Under the pieces are notes generated by a model. It was not told the DNA's origin and did no database searches. It saw only the letters and a program-made list of their open reading frames with translations. This document shows, piece after piece, positions 39,764-64,000 of a DNA stretch of 64,000 nt. The stretch spans positions 1,813 through 65,812 of the forward strand of contig CAZEBS010000004.1 in the NCBI GenBank assembly GCA_964510635.1, in the 5' to 3' direction. Position numbers and translations under genes: made by a program. Position 1 is the stretch's first letter; the number at the start of each line of letters is the position of its first letter. The DNA is from an uncultured Candidatus Bathyarchaeia archaeon. GTDB lineage: Archaea > Thermoproteota > Bathyarchaeia > Bathyarchaeales > Bathyarchaeaceae.

Positions 39764-39885
39764 AAAGAACCCTTACCATAGATGCTTTATAACAATTATG
39801 GGCTAGCATCCATCACCACTGAATCATAAAACGAAGACTGTCAGTAGGGCTTAAATACAAAGAACACCTTGTCTACTCTGTAAGG

Positions 39886-39976
39886 TGCATGGGGAGCTGG
39901 GTGAACCCGGCTGAGAGGACAACTACCTTGTTGTCGACCCTACGAACCTGATCCAGGTAATGCTGGCGGAGGGAAA
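39886..39976 (+). promoter_or_regulatory. TPP (THI-box) riboswitch aptamer
   Basis: GGGGAGC...GGCTGAGAGG-(GACAAC/GTTGTC hairpin)-ACCCTACGAACCTGATCCAGGTAATGCTGGCGGAGGGA reproduces the conserved CUGAGA, ACCUGAUC.GG.UAAUGC..GCG.AGGGA core. A TTAAATA box lies at 39851-39857. Confidence 0.85.
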
Positions 39977-39983
39977 AGAAAAG

Positions 39984-40511
39984 TTGAAAACAAGTAATTA
40001 TAATCTATCAACAAAAATAATTGCAGAGGCAGTTATGTTTGTGGCTCTTGCCACAGTTTTAAGTTTCTTCAAAATTTTTGAGATGCCACAAGGAGGCTCC
40101 GTAACCTTGGCTTCGATGGTGCCGATTCTGTGGCTAGCCATACGGAGAGGACCCATAGTAGGATTATTCGCAGCTATATTGTACGGCGTAGTCCAGCTGG
40201 TAGTTGACCCCAGTGGAGTATATTATCCCGCACAGGCGCTGCTAGATTATCCAGTCGCGTTTGGTTTGCTGGGGCTTGCAGGCTTCTTCCAGAAACATCC
40301 CTTTATTGGCGTAAACGTGGGAATACTCGGGCGTTTTGTGGCCCATTTCTTTTCAGGCATAATCTTCTTTGCTCAGTACACACCAGAAGGAATGCACCCT
40401 GCGATATACTCGGCTGCATACAATGGAGGCTATCTGCTAGCCGAGCTTGTGATAACAATCTACATATTTTACTTGCTGCAAGAAAGCAAAGTGTTGAAAA
40501 TCTACTTGTGA
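39984..40511 (+). CDS. thiT: thiamine transporter ThiT (ECF S-component-like)
   Basis: FKIFEMPQGGSVTLASMVPILWLAIRRGP and six hydrophobic helices. TTG at 39984 lies 9 nt after the GGAGGG at 39969-39974. The track ATG at 39960 sits inside the riboswitch aptamer. Confidence 0.75.
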   Translation: MKTSNYNLSTKIIAEAVMFVALATVLSFFKIFEMPQGGSVTLASMVPILWLAIRRGPIVGLFAAILYGVVQLVVDPSGVYYPAQALLDYPVAFGLLGLAGFFQKHPFIGVNVGILGRFVAHFFSGIIFFAQYTPEGMHPAIYSAAYNGGYLLAELVITIYIFYLLQESKVLKIYL

Positions 40512-40524
40512 GGGAGAAAACAGG

Positions 40525-41529
40525 GTGGGGAAGCTCCCAAACGAAGACCTCAAAAAACTATTGAAATGCATCAAAAAGGATTCTCGTGTGGTTGTTTCGC
40601 CTCAGCTTGGTTTCGACGCTGGAGTCCACATGCTAGACGATGGCAGGTACCTTGTTGTCTCTACAGACCCATGCATTGGAGTTCCTGAAGAGTGGTTCGG
40701 CTGGTTTCTAATCAATTACGTAGCCTCTGACAATGCCCTCTTCGGAGCCAAAACCGAGTTCTGCACAATCAATCTACTGGGGTCCCCATCAACAACACCT
40801 TCAGTTTTCCACAGGACTATGCAGCAAGCATGCGACGCTGCCAACGAACATGGAACAGCTATCGTAACGGGGCACACAGGAACATACGCTGGCGTGTCAA
40901 CTCTGGTTGGAGTATGCACAGGCTACGGTTACGTTGACAAAGAACGGCTGAAAACGCCTGGAGACGCCAGACCAGACGACCACATAGTATGTGTCAAACC
41001 CATCGGCTTAGAAACTGCAGTGAATTTTGCTTTAACCCATGAGACATTGGCTGAAAAACTCTTTGGAACAAAACAAACCAGAAAACTTGCGAAACTTGTT
41101 ACTATGCAAAGTTGCGTTAAAGAGGCGCTGCTCCTCGCGGAAATCGAGGGAGTACATGCTATGCATGATGCCACTGAAGGCGGATTAACGGCTGCATTGA
41201 ATGAGATGGCTGAAGCATCAGGTGTGGGCTTCAGGGTTGAGTGGGAGAAAATCTTGTTTACCGAAGAAGTTAAGGATTTGAGAGCATTTTATCGGTTGTC
41301 CGACAAACAGGTGCTGTCTATGTCCTCCACTGGCACGTTCGTGGCTGCTGTCAGTCCTGAAGACAGAAACAGGGTGGAGACGGTTCTGCGACAAAACAGT
41401 ATCGAAGCGAGGTTCATTGGTTCCTTCACAGAAGATATGGAGCGTGTTCTAGTCAAAAGCGGGGAAGAAGCAATGTTTCCGAGGACTGCTGATGATCCCT
41501 ACGCTAAAGTAATGTCTGGAGAATTGTAG
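40525..41529 (+). CDS. AIR-synthase-related (PurM/HypE/ThiL superfamily) protein
   Basis: MGKLPNEDLKKLL, GFDAGVHMLDDGRYLVVSTDP, NYVASDNALFGAKTEF and AMHDATEGGL. GTG start 13 nt after the thiT stop. Confidence 0.75.
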   Translation: MGKLPNEDLKKLLKCIKKDSRVVVSPQLGFDAGVHMLDDGRYLVVSTDPCIGVPEEWFGWFLINYVASDNALFGAKTEFCTINLLGSPSTTPSVFHRTMQQACDAANEHGTAIVTGHTGTYAGVSTLVGVCTGYGYVDKERLKTPGDARPDDHIVCVKPIGLETAVNFALTHETLAEKLFGTKQTRKLAKLVTMQSCVKEALLLAEIEGVHAMHDATEGGLTAALNEMAEASGVGFRVEWEKILFTEEVKDLRAFYRLSDKQVLSMSSTGTFVAAVSPEDRNRVETVLRQNSIEARFIGSFTEDMERVLVKSGEEAMFPRTADDPYAKVMSGEL

Positions 41530-43224: not shown

Positions 43225-43330
43225 GCGGCGGTAGCGAAGTCAGGTCAAACGCGGAGGACTCAAGATCAGCGTCTGATGAGCAATCCTTTCCCATAGGGGT
43301 TCGCAGGTTCGATTCCTGCCCGCCGCACCA
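43225..43330 (+). tRNA. tRNA-Leu(CAA) with an 18-nt canonical 37/38 intron and encoded CCA
   Basis: Acceptor GCGGCGG/CCGCCGC. D arm GCG-AAGTCAGGTCAAA-CGC. Anticodon stem GAGGA/TCCTT with loop CTCAAGA. Long variable arm CCCATAGGGG. T arm GCAGG-TTCGATT-CCTGC. A73 plus CCA. The intron at 43265-43282 forms a textbook BHB (CTCA/TGAG central helix, bulges AGA and CAA, inner TCAG/CTGA). Confidence 0.9.
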
Positions 43331-47822: not shown

Positions 47823-48008
47823 ACCAGCCCCGTCATATTAGGAGCCTAATAGAGGTACATTGTTGAAAACAGTATTTTTTCAGAAAACTCGCAGCAGCAC
47901 CAATTTTTTGCCTAAAATAAGTTCATCAGAAGAGTGAGGGCTCTAAACTCCCCTACAGAACTTCACCAATTGCTACTCTTTTGGTAGCTGGGACGCATAT
48001 GAAGTGTT

Positions 48009-57875: not shown

Positions 57876-58496
57876 TTATGTTGGCACAAACTTCTGAAGG
57901 GGATTTTCCTTGAGGACTTTTGTGAGTTGATTTAGGCTCAGTCCTGTTTTAATGTCTCCATATGTTTCACATCTTTCTTGTTTCCCCAAACTGCTGAGGC
58001 TTCGAACAACAACCTCCGCCTCGTCTCCAGACGGAAAAGAGATGTGAATGTGAAAAGATGACTCTTTTTCTCCCTCTTTGGTTACTGAAAGCCGCTCCGA
58101 ACGGGAAACCTCGAAATTTTGTTTCTGAATCTGCCTTAAAACCTGAAGATGATCTTGGGAAAATGCGATTATATCTATGTCGCTGCCTTGGCGGGCTGTT
58201 CCTCTCCAAACGCTTCCTACAAGACGCGGACTAAACTCTTCAAGTGCCTCCATTATTTCTTTGGCTTCTTTTCGCATTCGCAGAAGCCGCTCCTTTCTTT
58301 GTGTGCCCTCCCGCTCTTCTGCTATTTGGTCCAGTTCATCTGCAACCTCATGATTGCTGGGAAGAACTCTGGCGCCCAGTGTTTCTGCGGCTCTTTTTTT
58401 GGCTTGTTTGTACTCTTTTTCTTGAGATGTATAGAGGAGCAATGCAGCTTCTTGGGCAACCCTGTTTCTCAGCAATTTTGTGCGGTTGCCCTTCAA
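57876..58496 (-). CDS. Pol-beta-superfamily nucleotidyltransferase domain protein
   Basis: LVGSVWRGTARQGSDIDIIAF (GS...DxD) after a helical K/E-rich N-terminus. Confidence 0.6.
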   Translation of the reverse strand: MKGNRTKLLRNRVAQEAALLLYTSQEKEYKQAKKRAAETLGARVLPSNHEVADELDQIAEEREGTQRKERLLRMRKEAKEIMEALEEFSPRLVGSVWRGTARQGSDIDIIAFSQDHLQVLRQIQKQNFEVSRSERLSVTKEGEKESSFHIHISFPSGDEAEVVVRSLSSLGKQERCETYGDIKTGLSLNQLTKVLKENPLQKFVPT

Positions 58497-58551
58497 AACA
58501 ATCCCTCAAAACATTACGTGTGGAAGTAACTTTTGGATGTTGTTGTCTGTT

Positions 58552-59793
58552 TTATCCTGTGTAATTCCAGTAATAAATCTCTTGATACACGCCTTCTAAC
58601 GGAAAGTTTGGACCATCATAAACAATGTCTAAGGAATAGCTGTACTGGACAAGCAGTTTGTGGTATAAAGTCCAGATTTGCTGTGACAGTTCGTCTGGTC
58701 CCCAATATCCCCACATTCTGTCATCTAGGCGCCGCATACCCCACCCATAATTCTCAGGAAGAACTAAGGCGGCTTGAGCCGTAATTTTTCCATACTCTTC
58801 GGGATGATGTTGCATGTAATTCCAGAATTTCTGCATCGCCTCAAAGTGCTCATCTGTCAGTATGCCGTAAGGGTTGCCCGGAGGGTCTGTAGGGTAGTTA
58901 AAGATAATTATGTAGTCTGCTCCTGCCTCGTATGAAACTAGCATATCATAGAGCATTTCTGGTCCCGTCTTGTATGTTCCACTGTTAGTTTCTGGGTTTC
59001 GGTCCCTCCATACGATGATTGTGCCCCAGTCTTTCTGCTGAACGTTCGCTGCGCCTCTGCAAAGCCCGATGTGTTTCTGTAAATTGTGGTCCCATCCAAG
59101 TTCAACGAAGATTGTGTCGTAGCCTGCAAGGTAATCAAACCAGTATAGCGCATAATCAGCCGTGAAAGATGTGATCGAGCGGTCAATTATCTCGTTGAGT
59201 TGCATATGAACTAAGAGATACTCAACATACCTTTTTTTCGCTTCTTCGTAATCTCGGGTAACTGTCTGGTCGGCGGTTTCTTGGATATACTCTTCTATTG
59301 TTTGATAAAATTCTGGAAAAAGTTCTTCGACGCGGTGAAAAAAACTTGTCCAGTTAGAGTCAGTTTGAATTCCACCCGGCTCGTCAAAGAAGTAAATGCC
59401 CAAGAAATCTTCACTCCATCGATTCTTAGCATAGTCGAGCCATGGAATCTGCCATGGATAATCAGGGTCAAACCAGCCAAAAAACACGATAACATCTAAG
59501 CCGGCGTCAACAGCATAATCGCAGACTTCGTTTGTGGCTGTTTCATTCTTGCTTATTGGTCCTGACTGCAGCACAAACAGGTTGGTGTAGTCTTTGGTTT
59601 TGTCAATTAGCATTTTTGCCTCCGCAGCTGTGTCGCCGCAGAAAGAAATCCCGAAATAAGGCTCCACAGGATATGTTGCGCCATTTTCGGGATTGTTCGG
59701 AAGTTGGATTACCACCGTCAACATTAGAGAAACAAGTAGTATGAGGAGAAAAACCCATTTCAGGCTAGAAATTGATTTTCGTATTGAGCTCAA
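58552..59793 (-). CDS. membrane-anchored uncharacterised protein, paralog of 22155-23297
   Basis: N-terminal TM (WVFLLILLVSLMLTVVI). See the shared blocks listed for 22155-23297. Confidence 0.7.
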   Translation of the reverse strand: MSSIRKSISSLKWVFLLILLVSLMLTVVIQLPNNPENGATYPVEPYFGISFCGDTAAEAKMLIDKTKDYTNLFVLQSGPISKNETATNEVCDYAVDAGLDVIVFFGWFDPDYPWQIPWLDYAKNRWSEDFLGIYFFDEPGGIQTDSNWTSFFHRVEELFPEFYQTIEEYIQETADQTVTRDYEEAKKRYVEYLLVHMQLNEIIDRSITSFTADYALYWFDYLAGYDTIFVELGWDHNLQKHIGLCRGAANVQQKDWGTIIVWRDRNPETNSGTYKTGPEMLYDMLVSYEAGADYIIIFNYPTDPPGNPYGILTDEHFEAMQKFWNYMQHHPEEYGKITAQAALVLPENYGWGMRRLDDRMWGYWGPDELSQQIWTLYHKLLVQYSYSLDIVYDGPNFPLEGVYQEIYYWNYTG

Positions 59794-59853
59794 CTTGATA
59801 TACTAAACATCTTAGTTACTTATGTAAGTAATGATTTTCCAACCGGTTATCTG

Positions 59854-61308
59854 CTAGTTTTTTGTGAAAAAAAGCCTTGTTTGCCCCATAGTTTTAATGT
59901 CCAGTGCTTTAACCTTCACCATCACAGGAAAGTCTTTCACTGCGTTTCCGATGAGTAGGCAGTGGTGAGGCGGAAGCTCTTGGGCAATAGATTTCACGGT
60001 TTCAGCGTCCACCCTTGCAGCTTTTGACACGGTTTCGAGGTCCCGTTCGTTGGTGAAGTTGAAGAGGAAGATGCTGTCGGCTTGACGGTAGATGTTCTCT
60101 TTTATTGTGTCCGGTTGGTTAGTAACGAAGTTTGTGAATAAGCCGAAGTGCCTCATGCGGGTAACGATGTCTTCCCAGTATGTTTCCCTAAGGTAGAGGT
60201 GTGCTTCTTCAGCGAAAAGGAAAACGGATTTGATTTTCCATTGCCCCAGAAGCTTCACTAGATTCCCGAGGGTATACTCTAAGACGATTTGGCGGTCAAC
60301 CGATGAAACATCCTTCAAGTTGATGATTAGGGCTCCTCCGTCTTTCTTGGTTTTTTCGAAAAGCTTCTCAAAACTTGTTGCCATTTCGTCGTTGTCTGTG
60401 AAAAATCCCGAGTTCACTAGACTGTAATAGCGGGAGAAGAGGGCGTCCCGCACATGCATGTTGCAACTGCTTTTTCTGATGGCGTCTCCAAGGTCCTGAA
60501 GAGTAAACCTTCCTTGCTGGCATAACGATTTCCATATGTGCTTAAACTCTCGGGTTGACGTTCCGGGAAGAGCAAGAGCATGAACCAGAATCTTCAACAT
60601 GACACCCAAGTCCATTTTGGACAAGGAAACCCTGAAGTTGGCCCCGGGAGTAAGCACATGCACCCTGTCACTATACTTGTTGCCACCTCCCTTAACGGAA
60701 AGACCTAATCCAGTGTATTCGCCGTTGAGGTCAAGAACCACAACCGTAGCCTTGTAATCTACCAGACCTAAGACCAGCAACTTTGAAAGATGAGATTTTC
60801 CTGTTCCCTTCTTTCCAGTTATGATGTTCAGTCTCCCGTCAAGATCATGGGCTGTGATGTTTAACGGAGAATCATCCTTAGTTTCGCCGATGTTTATGGG
60901 AAGACCCTTGTTGATGCCCACATGTGCCAGCAACGAGTTGATGGGGATTTTTGTGATTCCTGACTTGGAGCGGGAAGGAAGCCATGATGAATTCACTCGG
61001 AGCCTGTCATTTAGCATGGTTCCTCGAATTTTGCAGATGAGCATTCGAGCGTCTTGAATGTTGTTTATGTGGGATGAGACGCCTAGAGGGTCAAAGTTGT
61101 TGCCGTAAATCTGCTCTTCGGTTGTGGAGTCGCGAAGTAGTTCTTCAAGAAGCCCTGGAACGCTGGCGAACTGGACATCGATTACTTGCGTGATCAGCTT
61201 TCTGTTAACGTTACTGTCTTCTACGAGGAGATAGTCGCCCTTTTCCACTTCGTCATTTGGAAAGCTGAGAATCTGAAGACTGCTTCCCTCCTTCTTGTAG
61301 AGCCTCAT
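59854..61308 (-). CDS. herA: HerA-like (FtsK/HerA superfamily) ATPase
   Basis: N-terminal barrel-like GDYLLVED...ITQVIDV. Walker A ITGKKGTGKSHL. Walker B VFLFAEEAHLY. NQPDTI and LIGNAV blocks near the C-terminus. Confidence 0.75.
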   Translation of the reverse strand: MRLYKKEGSSLQILSFPNDEVEKGDYLLVEDSNVNRKLITQVIDVQFASVPGLLEELLRDSTTEEQIYGNNFDPLGVSSHINNIQDARMLICKIRGTMLNDRLRVNSSWLPSRSKSGITKIPINSLLAHVGINKGLPINIGETKDDSPLNITAHDLDGRLNIITGKKGTGKSHLSKLLVLGLVDYKATVVVLDLNGEYTGLGLSVKGGGNKYSDRVHVLTPGANFRVSLSKMDLGVMLKILVHALALPGTSTREFKHIWKSLCQQGRFTLQDLGDAIRKSSCNMHVRDALFSRYYSLVNSGFFTDNDEMATSFEKLFEKTKKDGGALIINLKDVSSVDRQIVLEYTLGNLVKLLGQWKIKSVFLFAEEAHLYLRETYWEDIVTRMRHFGLFTNFVTNQPDTIKENIYRQADSIFLFNFTNERDLETVSKAARVDAETVKSIAQELPPHHCLLIGNAVKDFPVMVKVKALDIKTMGQTRLFFTKN

Positions 61309-62387
61309 TGGTATCCCTCCGCGCCTTTTCCGAAGGGCCCAAAAAGCAGCCGACGCACATTCGGTCTTGTAACTATCTTGAGTCCATACTGCTGAGCTAT
61401 GAAACGTTGGATGCCAATCACTTCAGTGGCAGTGAAGGTTGAGTATATGTGAGCCAAACGTAAAGTTTCAGGATAGCTTTGAATAAGGAGATCGCTTCCA
61501 AGAAGACTTTGAACAGCTTCTATTGCCCGTTCTCGTGGGACCTTTCTGTCAATATCTAACCTGAAAGAGCATACTCCGGGAGTTAGTTTTGCAACATAAA
61601 CGTTTCCAAGTAGGAAAACTGGACCTGACGAAATGGGAAAACCATTTATCTGAAGAAGACAAGGTGGCTCAGCTTTTTCTGCATAATCGGTTAGCTTGTG
61701 ACCGGAAAACCTTAGGGTCGTGTTCTTGGAGAAAGCCAAAACGGTACTGAGGCGATTTCTCGCTATCTCTAGGAGCCTTGCCACCTCATCTACTGGACTG
61801 TCAGCCATTCCAGCAGTCATTGAGCCGTCCCATAGGATGATGGTGCCGTAGGCTGAGCATGAGATTCCTAGCTGTAGCCAGCGTTCAAGAAGATTGCCCA
61901 TTCTGGCTTGTATGTTGGCTATGTTTGGGATTCTGTTGTCTTCTGAGATTTCGAAGTTGTGGTTTCTGAAAAGTTTGTGGATTTCTTTTTTGTTTTGTTC
62001 TGTTATGTGGAATGGGAAGGGCCCTATTCTTTGATACTTGTATCGGTTTTTTTCTTTCCAGACTATTGCTCCTCTTATTGCGCAGAGTATGCCTGTTTCG
62101 GTTTCTCCTATTCTTATGCTTGAAACGTCGACGGCGACAACTGGCTTCTCGTATTGGTTGCGTTCTAGGGAGATTGTCTTTATTGTTGAGGGGTGTTGAA
62201 TCTTCATGAATGGTGTTGCGTCTGCAACATGTTCTGTTAGGGATTGGTTGGGCTGTAGATAGCTGCTTTCTATGTTTTTCATGCTGTTTAGGCTTAGTTC
62301 TATGAATGTTTGTGGGAGTTGCAGTTCCTCTATTTGGGGTGGAAAGTTATATGTTGGTGTTGTTGTATAGTTATGTTGCCCAATCAA
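61305..62387 (-). CDS. nurA: NurA-like nuclease
   Basis: VVAVDVSS, ILWDGSM, AFSKNTTL and SYPETLRLAHIYSTFTATE resemble NurA catalytic and structural motifs. Its stop overlaps the herA ATG (ATGA at 61305-61308). Confidence 0.65.
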   Translation of the reverse strand: MIGQHNYTTTPTYNFPPQIEELQLPQTFIELSLNSMKNIESSYLQPNQSLTEHVADATPFMKIQHPSTIKTISLERNQYEKPVVAVDVSSIRIGETETGILCAIRGAIVWKEKNRYKYQRIGPFPFHITEQNKKEIHKLFRNHNFEISEDNRIPNIANIQARMGNLLERWLQLGISCSAYGTIILWDGSMTAGMADSPVDEVARLLEIARNRLSTVLAFSKNTTLRFSGHKLTDYAEKAEPPCLLQINGFPISSGPVFLLGNVYVAKLTPGVCSFRLDIDRKVPRERAIEAVQSLLGSDLLIQSYPETLRLAHIYSTFTATEVIGIQRFIAQQYGLKIVTRPNVRRLLFGPFGKGAEGYQ

Positions 62388-62482
62388 TAAGATTCACCAA
62401 TATGGAAATGATTTGCGTGCAACAATATTTAAATGTTGTGCATGTGCATCATGAACAATACAATATACAATAAGGGAGAACA

Positions 62483-62884
62483 ATGACAGAAGACACACCA
62501 CCGCCAATCCGCCTAAAGATGAAAGTAGGCAACCTAGAATTCGAAATAGAATGCCAAGAAGAACAACTAGAATCAGCAGTAAAACGAATCCTAGGAACTA
62601 TAACAGCATACTCAAAAGAACCCGCAATCATGCAAGAACGCCCCCTTCCCCCACCAAGAGCAGAAACCTGCAAAAGCCTCATACAACAGCTCTGGACAGA
62701 AGGATGGTTCGCGTCTCCTCATGGACTGGGGGAAGTCCACAGCGAAATGGCACGCAGAGGCTTCCATTACGACCGAACAGCAGTCGCCCACGCGCTGGTA
62801 GATTTGGTAAAAGAGGGCTTGTTGACAAGAGAGGGGCAGCCTCGCCGTTATCGTTATGCCCAAAAGAAACCGCCCAGAACATGA
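62483..62884 (+). CDS. hypothetical protein with a C-terminal winged-helix-like domain
   Basis: AGGGAG lies 6 nt upstream of the ATG. C-terminal RTAVAHALVDLVKEGLLTREGQPRRYRY looks like a wHTH wing. Divergent from nurA. Confidence 0.5.
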   Translation: MTEDTPPPIRLKMKVGNLEFEIECQEEQLESAVKRILGTITAYSKEPAIMQERPLPPPRAETCKSLIQQLWTEGWFASPHGLGEVHSEMARRGFHYDRTAVAHALVDLVKEGLLTREGQPRRYRYAQKKPPRT

Positions 62885-62911
62885 AGTTGAAAACGTTTTG
62901 TGTTGCGTAGG

Positions 62912-63151
62912 TTAGAGGAGCTGTTGCAGCTCTCTCCATTTCTCCAAGAATTCCCGTCCTCTCTTGGTTGCTACGTATCGGGTTGAATTGTCGTGGACTT
63001 CCAAGAGTCCCAGCGTTTGCAATTCAGAGAGATAATGCTGGAGCATCTTCCATGACAGGTTTGTTCCGTACATGACGTGTGTCTTGGTTCTCGGTTCTGA
63101 ACACAAATCGAGAATTTCTGCCATGATTTCTATACGATCTCTCTTAACCAT
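62912..63151 (-). CDS. small winged-helix DNA-binding protein (HTH_45-like)
   Basis: RDRIEIMAEILDLC...KTHVMYGTNLSWKMLQHYLSELQTLGLLE.... Confidence 0.7.
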   Translation of the reverse strand: MVKRDRIEIMAEILDLCSEPRTKTHVMYGTNLSWKMLQHYLSELQTLGLLEVHDNSTRYVATKRGREFLEKWRELQQLL

Positions 63152-63314
63152 CAGTCATCACGAGGAACAACATTCCTTTGTCATTGAAACGTTTTTAATG
63201 TATCTGTTCTGTATCCCTGTTGAACAACATTTTTTCGCTAGATAACCCTGTTTTGCATCCTTTCCAAGCACTGGAATTGCGTAAAACAACAGTTTACCAG
63301 AAACAGAAGTTGTA

Positions 63315-63458
63315 ATGGCGCCGAGGGAGGGATTTGAACCCTCGCGACCCAATGGATCACAGGCTTTCCGTAGTCGCAGGTTCCAGGCTTATGCTTCCAA
63401 AGTTGGAATCTGCTCCCTACCAGATTTCCCGCAACATGGTTGCTCTAGGAGACCTCGG
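63315..63458 (-). tRNA. tRNA-Ser(GGA) with three introns (D-loop, 29/30, 37/38) and encoded CCA
   Basis: 7-bp acceptor GCCGAGG/CCTCGGC, G73, T arm GAGGG-TTCAAAT-CCCTC, class II variable arm GATCC-ATT-GGGTC. Removing 63424-63443, 63388-63408 and 63365-63379 gives an 85-nt cloverleaf with D arm TCC-TAGTCTGGTAG-GGA, anticodon stem CAGGC/GCCTG and loop CTGGAAA. Each junction falls after the second nucleotide of a 3-nt bulge. Confidence 0.8.
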
Positions 63459-63513
63459 CACAACAGTAGAATAGCAACAGACCTGTTTTTTAGGCTTTTC
63501 GAATGGTGGGCGC

Positions 63514-64000
63514 CTACTGCTGAGTCTTGCGCCACATTTTAGGGTACATACCCCGCGGCATCATGACCCTTTTGGTTTTTGCTACAAAACCGTGGTCCAT
63601 CTTCAGCATCTTTTCAGAAGAGACAGTGGCTTCGGCTAGCGTTACAGCTTCTCCTTTCTGTGTGAACGCTGCAACTGTGTCGCCGATTTTGATTCCAGAG
63701 TCTAGTGACAGCACTCCAGGAGCGGTTAGGTGGGCTCCGTGGCAGAGGGCATCAACTGCAGAGTCTCGCACATAGATTTTCGGGATTAGCTCTAGGGCTT
63801 TTTCCATGGGGTAAACAAATTTTCTAAGAAGTTTTTCGTCTTTTGTTTCTTGCCACTGGCTAAAGAGGTAAGAAATGTCGTGTAGGGTGACCAGGCTTTC
63901 ATCTTCTGTGAAGGGGCCAACCCGTGTTCTGCGAAGCTCTTGCATGTGAGCGCCACAGCCCAGAACCTCGCCGATGTCGTAGCAGAGCTTCCGTATGTAG
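63514..64000 (-). CDS. cbf5: H/ACA RNP pseudouridine synthase Cbf5, C-terminal part with PUA domain (5' end right of the window)
   Basis: The frame is open to base 64000 (...YIRKLCYDIGEVLGCGAHMQELRRTRVGPF...), followed by a PUA-like region (IYVRDSAVDALCHGAHLTAPGV). Confidence 0.9.
   Translation of the reverse strand, partial: YIRKLCYDIGEVLGCGAHMQELRRTRVGPFTEDESLVTLHDISYLFSQWQETKDEKLLRKFVYPMEKALELIPKIYVRDSAVDALCHGAHLTAPGVLSLDSGIKIGDTVAAFTQKGEAVTLAEATVSSEKMLKMDHGFVAKTKRVMMPRGMYPKMWRKTQQ

Follow-up and report, generated by a model that had tools for sequence, protein, structure and literature searches.

A probable tRNA-Ser(GGA) gene with three short introns, conserved among Bathyarchaeia

How should a locus be read that begins and ends like a tRNA gene and that standard tRNA detectors pass over? 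The question arises near one end of a 64,000-nt stretch of DNA (here the window; contig CAZEBS010000004.1, GenBank assembly GCA_964510635.1) from an uncultured Candidatus Bathyarchaeia archaeon. A first reading, made from the sequence alone, had proposed that the minus strand carries a tRNA-Ser(GGA) gene interrupted by three introns. We consider it very probable that the locus, immediately downstream of cbf5, serves a Bathyarchaeia archaeon near Candidatus Bathyarchaeum as a functional tRNA-Ser(GGA) gene and has three bulge-helix-bulge (BHB) introns. The proposed identity held up under splicing in silico, conservation in 66 genes, comparison with natural intron-poor orthologues, and covariation of the cloverleaf.

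The acceptor stem (GCCGAGG/CCUCGGC), the T arm (GAGGG-UUCAAAU-CCCUC), the discriminator G73, and the encoded CCA are all present, as that reading had said. With exons and introns alternating, minus strand 63459..63316 reads GCCGAGGTCTCCTAG / AGCAACCATGTTGCGGGAAA / TCTGGTAGGGAGCAG / ATTCCAACTTTGGAAGCATAA / GCCTGGAA / CCTGCGACTACGGAA / AGCCTGTGATCCATTGGGTCGCGAGGGTTCAAATCCCTCCCTCGGCG / CCA. Cutting out the three introns (20, 21, and 15 nt) in silico left an 85-nt tRNA with the marks of class II tRNA-Ser, namely, a long variable arm (GAUCC-AUU-GGGUC), the anticodon GGA, and G73, and ARAGORN called the spliced sequence tRNA-Ser(GGA). The sequence-only reading had placed the gene ends and every intron boundary one position too low (corrected coordinates are in Table 1). 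The mature sequence that it wrote out is the product of the corrected introns (63444..63425, 63409..63389, and 63380..63366). Its coordinates, taken literally, yield a slightly different product that ARAGORN still calls tRNA-Ser(GGA) but that has an anticodon-stem mismatch.

The unspliced gene behaved differently. ARAGORN reported no tRNA in the whole window, and its intron mode detected nothing when run on the unspliced gene. The Rfam tRNA model gave no match at this locus, either at the gathering threshold or at E values up to 10; a permissive Rfam scan of the locus returned just T-arm fragments, placed under unrelated families. At the gathering threshold, the only Rfam matches in the window were a tRNA at 43225-43327 and a thiamine pyrophosphate (TPP) riboswitch. 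Aiming to place the inserts objectively, we also trained a covariance model on 19 natural archaeal tRNA-Ser genes that lack introns, with which the window gene shares the acceptor stem and T arm. The unspliced gene scored 33 bits in a forced alignment with a false 5' half; the model was unable to span three insertions and is uninformative on the intron positions. Since ARAGORN, Rfam, and the covariance model all missed or misread the unspliced gene, it is unreadable as a contiguous tRNA.

We then asked how widely the arrangement occurs. A scan of one genome per archaeal species, with the T-arm plus acceptor sequence as the query, returned 120 loci, and a scan of metagenome contigs with the 3' exon as the pattern gave 52 additional loci, 49 of which were complete enough to parse. 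Together with the window, 16 loci from genomes of Bathyarchaeia (or a close relative) and the 49 parsable metagenome loci make up 66 three-intron genes. The 16 genome loci have genes of 137 to 146 nt (encoded CCA excluded) with the same three inserts. The exons of the genome alignment vary in a single column, that of the unpaired tRNA position 9, which is C, G, or A across the 66 genes. The remaining substitutions and all indels are confined to the three introns, with the variable sites lying mostly in the loops of the intron 1 and intron 2 hairpins, in the 5' part of intron 3, and in its last two bases. Intron 1 ranges from 15 to 23 nt among orthologues, with all of the length change in its loop.

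The metagenome copies repeat this pattern. All 49 parsable loci have three introns and identical exons 2, 3, and 4, and exon 1 differs at position 9 only, while introns 1, 2, and 3 occur as 15, 16, and 12 distinct sequences, respectively. Searching the metagenome contigs by spliced-junction sequence revealed no copy lacking introns 2 and 3 and no copy resembling complementary DNA. Of the three unparsed loci, two (L125 and L173) end at a contig edge and the third (L161, on contig Ga0307434_1059793) has altered exons, with three G-to-A changes that make exon 2 read TCTGATAGGAAGCAG and exon 4 read AAACCTG. DNA damage, a sequencing error, or a decaying copy could explain the L161 changes.

Orthologues from the sister class, Methanomethylicia, speak to the junctions themselves. 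Methanomethylicia-type tRNA-Ser(GGA) genes have no D-loop insert, and their sequence (GCCGAGGTCTCCTAGTCTGGTAGGGAGCAG / CCUAGUCUGG, with CCUAG running directly into UCUGG) is exactly that of the window's exons 1 and 2 joined. An intron at 29/30 is present in 20 of 20 parsable Methanomethylicia-type orthologues, and one at 37/38 is present in all of them except L088. In Euryarchaeota and DPANN, Ser(GGA) genes carry either no intron or the canonical one alone. The introns that Bathyarchaeia have in common with Methanomethylicia point, on this sequence comparison, to old, inherited introns. CCA is encoded in every Bathyarchaeia and Methanomethylicia orthologue. Within the Bathyarchaeia, the last two bases of intron 3 vary (AA, UA, UG, CA, or UC) beside an invariant A38; this variation fixes the 3' junction of intron 3 just before A38, whereas the window's own intron 3 junction could slide within GGAA...GGAA.

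The spliced product aligned to natural intronless archaeal tRNA-Ser(GGA) with three gap columns only, in the D-loop and the variable-arm loop. When 18 distinct spliced Ser(GGA) sequences were laid on one cloverleaf, 98.5% of the cells were paired, with compensatory change at nine cloverleaf pairs, including pair 29-41, whose partners lie on either side of the intron 2 junction. In 500 shuffles, neither the observed cloverleaf pairing nor the observed covariation was ever reached, and sliding the pairing partners by one column lowered the pairing to 56 to 59%. For the 17 genomic Bathyarchaeia genes taken by themselves, covariation counts are uninformative, as the helices hardly vary there; the broader gene sets gave the informative comparisons.

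The genome scan also returned tRNA-Ser loci with other inserts. Many of the loci from DPANN and other archaea (L004, L058, L023, L027, L057, L063, L111, L043, L017, L078, L007, L037, L107, and L116) are 111 to 224 nt long, with the same acceptor stem and T arm. Their hosts are Woesearchaeota, Aenigmatarchaeota, Nanoarchaeota, Iainarchaeota, and unclassified archaea. The inserts interrupt either the variable arm or the stem or loop of the anticodon arm, and some (in L007, L107, and L116) are long, A/T rich, and internally repeated.

We next examined the splice-site motifs, placing them in the standard register of 3-nt bulges 4 bp apart with cleavage after the second bulge base and measuring the geometry in all 37 parsable genes. 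In the usual notation, H is the central helix between the bulges (B), h is the outer, exon-side helix, and h' is the inner, intron-side helix. The window's tRNA-Leu(CAA), with an 18-nt canonical intron, served as a register control and gave a perfect hBHBh', with CUCA/UGAG as H and UCAG/CUGA as the inner helix. The bulges and helices listed for introns 1 to 3 in the sequence-only reading are all found in this register (Table 1). The fifth h' pair of intron 1 toggles between C-G and G-C among metagenome copies. In other genes, the intronic H strand of intron 2 is GUUC or GCUC, which raises the helix to four pairs of four, and in L014 the same helix has a compensatory change (GGGC/GUCC) in step with one at D-stem pair 10-25. 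Intron 3 contains GACUACGG in 16 of 17 genomic copies (L033 has AACUACGG) and in all metagenome variants of the intron, and the H helix explains only the ACGG of this conserved string.

The control gene itself, tRNA-Leu(CAA), lies at 43225-43327 on the plus strand with CCA at 43328-43330; it has A73 and an encoded CCA, and its canonical 37/38 intron is ATCAGCGTCTGATGAGCA. Rfam finds it (48 bits), and ARAGORN in default mode misses it. With tRNA-Leu(CAA) and tRNA-Ser(GGA) both intron bearing, both tRNA genes of the window contain introns.

Table 1. Features of the tRNA-Ser(GGA) locus, in window coordinates
Feature	Coordinates	Length	Strand	Description
Putative archaeal promoter	63501..63486		minus	BRE-like (B recognition element) CGAAAAG, then TATA-like CCTAAAAAA; -42 to -27 from tRNA position 1
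Conserved leader element GCTATTCTAC	63475..63466		minus	-17 to -8; near-invariant in 17/17 genomic orthologues
tRNA-Ser(GGA) gene	63459..63319	141 nt	minus	Read from sequence
Exon 1, GCCGAGGUCUCCUAG	63459..63445	15 nt	minus	tRNA positions 1-15: acceptor 5' strand, U8, N9, D-stem 5' strand, A14, G15
Intron 1, AGCAACCAUGUUGCGGGAAA	63444..63425	20 nt	minus	D-loop, site 15/16
Exon 2, UCUGGUAGGGAGCAG	63424..63410	15 nt	minus	tRNA positions 16-29, including 17a
Intron 2, AUUCCAACUUUGGAAGCAUAA	63409..63389	21 nt	minus	Anticodon stem, site 29/30
Exon 3, GCCUGGAA	63388..63381	8 nt	minus	tRNA positions 30-37; anticodon G34 G35 A36
Intron 3, CCUGCGACUACGGAA	63380..63366	15 nt	minus	Canonical site 37/38
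Exon 4	63365..63319	47 nt	minus	Positions 38-73: anticodon-stem 3' strand, variable arm, T arm, acceptor 3' strand, G73
Encoded CCA end	63318..63316	3 nt	minus	Read from sequence
Intron 1 motif				Relaxed HBh'; H of U10-U13 with intronic GGGA, UCCU/GGGA, 4/4 pairs; bulges AGA/AAU; h' GCAAC/GUUGC; no outer helix
Intron 2 motif				Full hBHBh'; H GAGC (G24-C27)/GCAU, 3/4 pairs and one A.A; bulges AGA/AAG; h' UUCCA/UGGAA; h of U20A21G22G23 with C31C32U33G34, 4/4 pairs
Intron 3 motif				hBH/BHL (bulge-helix-loop); H of C32-G35, CUGG/ACGG, three pairs and one G.A; bulges AAC/AAA; no inner helix; exon-side helix is the anticodon stem

The motifs bear on the order in which the introns might leave. Motifs 1 and 2 draw on opposite strands of what will become the D-stem and are compatible with each other. 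Motif 2 also occupies C27 and C31-G34, and motif 3 needs C32-G35 along with the entire anticodon stem. Motifs 2 and 3 are mutually exclusive, because they share bases and intron 2 interrupts the anticodon stem. The sequence-only reading held that this arrangement implies ordered splicing. Mutual exclusion fits the idea, but "implies" is too strong given the similar computed energies of the two conformers: -38.7 kcal/mol with the intron 2 hairpin looped out and the anticodon stem and intron 3 motif formed, and -39.9 kcal/mol with motifs 1 and 2. The removal of intron 2 before intron 3 is plausible on these models and is not forced by the sequence.

The pathway that we propose would run as follows. 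Transcription from the gene's own BRE/TATA promoter would give a precursor of about 150 to 160 nt, in which intron 1 would borrow the 5' strand of the D-stem and intron 2 would borrow its 3' strand together with C31-G34. The archaeal tRNA splicing endonuclease (EndA) would cut after the second bulge base at the three BHB-type motifs, removing 20, 21, and 15 nt at sites 15/16, 29/30, and 37/38; the intron 3 motif would most simply form once intron 2 is gone. An RtcB-type ligase would then join the four exons into the 85-nt class II tRNA with its encoded CCA.

A more ambitious possibility is that the three introns are an obligatory, fixed feature of Bathyarchaeia tRNA-Ser(GGA) that acts as a folding or processing programme with a checkpointed splicing order. 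Introns 1 and 2 may keep the strands of the D-arm apart, and pairing of GACUACGG with U13-C17 may couple the removal of intron 3 to the prior loss of introns 1 and 2. GACUA in intron 3 is indeed complementary to U13-C17, a stretch created by the removal of intron 1, and the minimum free energy (MFE) fold of the intermediate uses this pairing. The match is only 5 nt long, however, and both of its sides are invariant, which leaves no covariation to test; a match of this length is likely to arise by chance. We regard the programme as improbable. If true, it would mean a checkpointed order instead of three independent introns.

The region upstream of the gene is conserved as well. Each of the 17 genomic Bathyarchaeia orthologues keeps CGAAAAG-NCTAAAAA at an unchanged distance, and by this conservation and its position the element is a putative promoter. 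It begins 13 nt past the stop codon of cbf5, whose end (63514) lies 55 nt upstream of the tRNA. The leader element GCTATTCTAC probably corresponds to the region where transcription starts and to the 5' leader. Downstream of the gene, a T-run follows within about 25 nt in most orthologues; the window has TGTTTCT only. The conserved signals support an independently transcribed gene, although they are not proof of transcription.

What else could the locus be? Three freely chosen deletions make many sequences look like a tRNA, and the sequence-only reading was made without tools to check for this. A T-arm-like hairpin beside unrelated sequence is nevertheless a next to negligible possibility, since the spliced product aligns nearly gap free to natural intronless tRNA-Ser(GGA) genes, its cloverleaf beats the shuffled and slid controls, and the architecture is repeated in 65 independent loci. 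A decayed tRNA-Ser pseudogene, out of use after accumulating three insertions, would explain why standard detectors fail to recognise the gene and has a possible parallel in the exonic G-to-A changes of L161. Against decay, the exons are identical in the 66 copies (position 9 apart), though the flanking DNA is only 70 to 88% identical; variation falls entirely in the inserts, which keep the BHB geometry with compensatory changes; the promoter is conserved; and no copy without introns 2 and 3 turned up among the metagenome contigs. We therefore consider a pseudogene highly improbable. Somewhat less remote, but still very unlikely, is a real gene with other junctions or another intron count, in which the D-loop insert is retained as an expanded D-arm or the sites are shifted by 1 or 2 bases. 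The missing exon-side helix of the intron 1 motif, the sliding intron 3 junction of the window, and the fact that coordinates shifted by one base still give ARAGORN a tRNA-Ser would all fit. The insert-free Methanomethylicia CCUAGUCUGG, which matches the join of exons 1 and 2 exactly, argues for excision at 15/16; the covarying pair 29-41 spans the intron 2 junction, the varying last bases of intron 3 set its junction before A38, and the one-base shift costs a mismatch in the anticodon stem. A split or permuted tRNA gene was rejected because the exons are contiguous and collinear within 141 nt, and a self-splicing group I or group II intron was rejected because the inserts are 15 to 21 nt long and have no Rfam intron matches.

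Several points weigh against a functional three-intron gene. The MFE fold of the whole precursor includes the H and h' helices of intron 1 and lacks the intron 2 and intron 3 motifs. The MFE folds of partly spliced intermediates contain neither the intron 2 or 3 motif nor the mature cloverleaf, and because the cloverleaf itself was not recovered, we used MFE neither for nor against these two motifs. The H helices of introns 2 and 3 in the window have an A.A and a G.A mismatch, respectively. These mismatches and the lack of an inner helix in intron 3 mean that a broad-specificity endonuclease would be required, and no EndA or RtcB gene was found among the 37 of 57 nonoverlapping window open reading frames (ORFs; at least 110 amino acids) that were scanned. 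Excision and the junctions are inferred from comparison of DNA. By its sequence, the three-intron gene is a member of the archaeal multi-intron BHB tRNA class.

Features of this kind are known from other archaea. Passages in PMC4090602, PMC4033280, and PMC8450103 describe up to three introns per archaeal tRNA gene; noncanonical sites at 20/21, 22/23, 25/26, 29/30, 30/31, 45/46, 53/54, 56/57, 59/60, and 3/4; relaxed hBH or HBh' motifs at noncanonical intron sites; and cases in which one intron has to be excised before the next motif forms. According to the same passages, such features accompany (alpha-beta)2 or epsilon2 endonucleases and occur for the most part in Crenarchaeota (especially Thermoproteales), Nanoarchaeota, and Thaumarchaeota. 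That multi-intron tRNAs are a mark of a few archaeal lineages, as the sequence-only reading stated, agrees with the passages in PMC4090602 and PMC8450103. Site 15/16 is outside the positions quoted in PMC4090602, but the quoted list ends with "etc.," so its absence there is no evidence of a new site. Our literature search on tRNA introns in Bathyarchaeia, Bathyarchaeota, or the Miscellaneous Crenarchaeotal Group (MCG) found no description.

The closest parallels are the multi-intron tRNAs of Thermoproteales (Pyrobaculum calidifontis and Thermofilum pendens; Sugahara et al. 2007/2008, as reported in passages of PMC4090602, PMC4033280, and PMC8450103). As described there, these tRNAs likewise have at most three short introns spliced by proteins, combine a canonical 37/38 intron with noncanonical sites that include 29/30, use strict or relaxed BHB motifs (hBH or HBh'), and have overlapping motifs, so that one intron must be out before the next motif can form. 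The Bathyarchaeia are another class of Thermoproteota, comprising mesophilic to moderately thermophilic sediment lineages, and differ in that the three-intron state is fixed (66 of 66 copies). Whereas recent intron transposition is described for Thermoproteales in those passages, the 29/30 and 37/38 introns here are shared with Methanomethylicia.

Other comparisons are more distant. The strict hBHBh' motif at 37/38 of tRNA-Leu(CAA) in the window has the same register, with position 32 pairing with the third-last intron base. In contrast to that motif, intron 3 of the Ser gene shows a G.A within H and lacks an inner helix, and introns 1 and 2 lie outside the anticodon loop and can form their motifs only after refolding of the D-arm and anticodon arm. 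Among TACK archaea, D-arm introns are described in passages on Caldiarchaeum subterraneum of the Aigarchaeota (PMC3293823), and tRNAs of Aigarchaeota and Thaumarchaeota (PMC8450103) have introns in the D-arm, variable arm, or T arm, sometimes several; they differ in positions and isoacceptors, and the passages covered do not describe three introns in one gene. The split and permuted tRNAs of Nanoarchaeum equitans and Caldivirga maquilingensis likewise depend on BHB processing by the same endonuclease, with breakpoints also at 29/30 and 37/38, but the four Ser exons are contiguous, in normal order, on one strand, and in one transcription unit.

The surroundings of the gene are archaeal, with cbf5 (its 3' part), Alba, and a HerA-like ATPase encoded nearby. 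Positions 59542-64000 align over 4.5 kb, at 87.6% identity and in synteny, to a contig of Candidatus Bathyarchaeum sp. (L033); other Bathyarchaeia contigs are 81 to 85% identical to this region, and the junction between cbf5 and the tRNA is kept in all of them. Between purH and the tRNA, a minus-strand gene cluster (57876-62387), syntenic in L033, L095, and L039, includes a HerA/DUF87-type ATPase (59854-61308) and a nucleotidyltransferase (57876-58496) with a weak HalB-like match. The cluster ORFs at 61305-62387 and 58552-59793 had no family match. The cluster is possibly a defence or DNA-translocation module.

Two other elements of the window were noted in passing. The TPP riboswitch (39880-39993, plus strand; Rfam, 58.5 bits) overlaps the beginning of a gene for a ThiT/YuaJ-type thiamine transporter (39960-40508), which is followed by a ThiL-like gene of the AIR-synthase family (40525-41526), an ordinary arrangement that is here found in Bathyarchaeia. 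Directly after the pyruvate kinase gene lies a 54-nt intergenic element, TCATATTAGGAGCCTAATAGAGGTACATTGTTGAAAACAGTATTTTTTTCAGAA (47834-47887, plus strand), that is about 90% identical in three Bathyarchaeia contigs (L032, L039, and L072), the flanks being only 70 to 85% identical. Its distance to tRNA-Ser is about 1 to 2 kb in L032 and L039 and 15 kb in the window. The element contains a hairpin (ATTAGG-AG-CCTAAT) and a T-run. Rfam gave no match to it, and it could represent either a conserved terminator or a small RNA.

Tri-intronic tRNAs, an intron at position 29/30, and dependent intron removal were already described for Thermoproteales. New here are the host lineage, the complete fixation of the three-intron state (66 copies), and the fact that Methanomethylicia have the 29/30 and 37/38 introns too. 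How archaeal tRNA splicing is currently understood stays unchanged, and the value of the finding lies mainly in annotation and in the history of noncanonical introns. The range of tri-intronic tRNAs is widened from Thermoproteales to another class, for which a broad-specificity splicing endonuclease is predicted. The introns shared with Methanomethylicia suggest that some noncanonical tRNA introns are old and stably inherited. In Bathyarchaeia, which are among the most abundant sediment archaea, the UCC/UCU codon family would be read by a tRNA whose gene ARAGORN and Rfam miss, and unless searches take introns into account, the completeness of Bathyarchaeia metagenome-assembled genomes and their tRNA counts will be underestimated.

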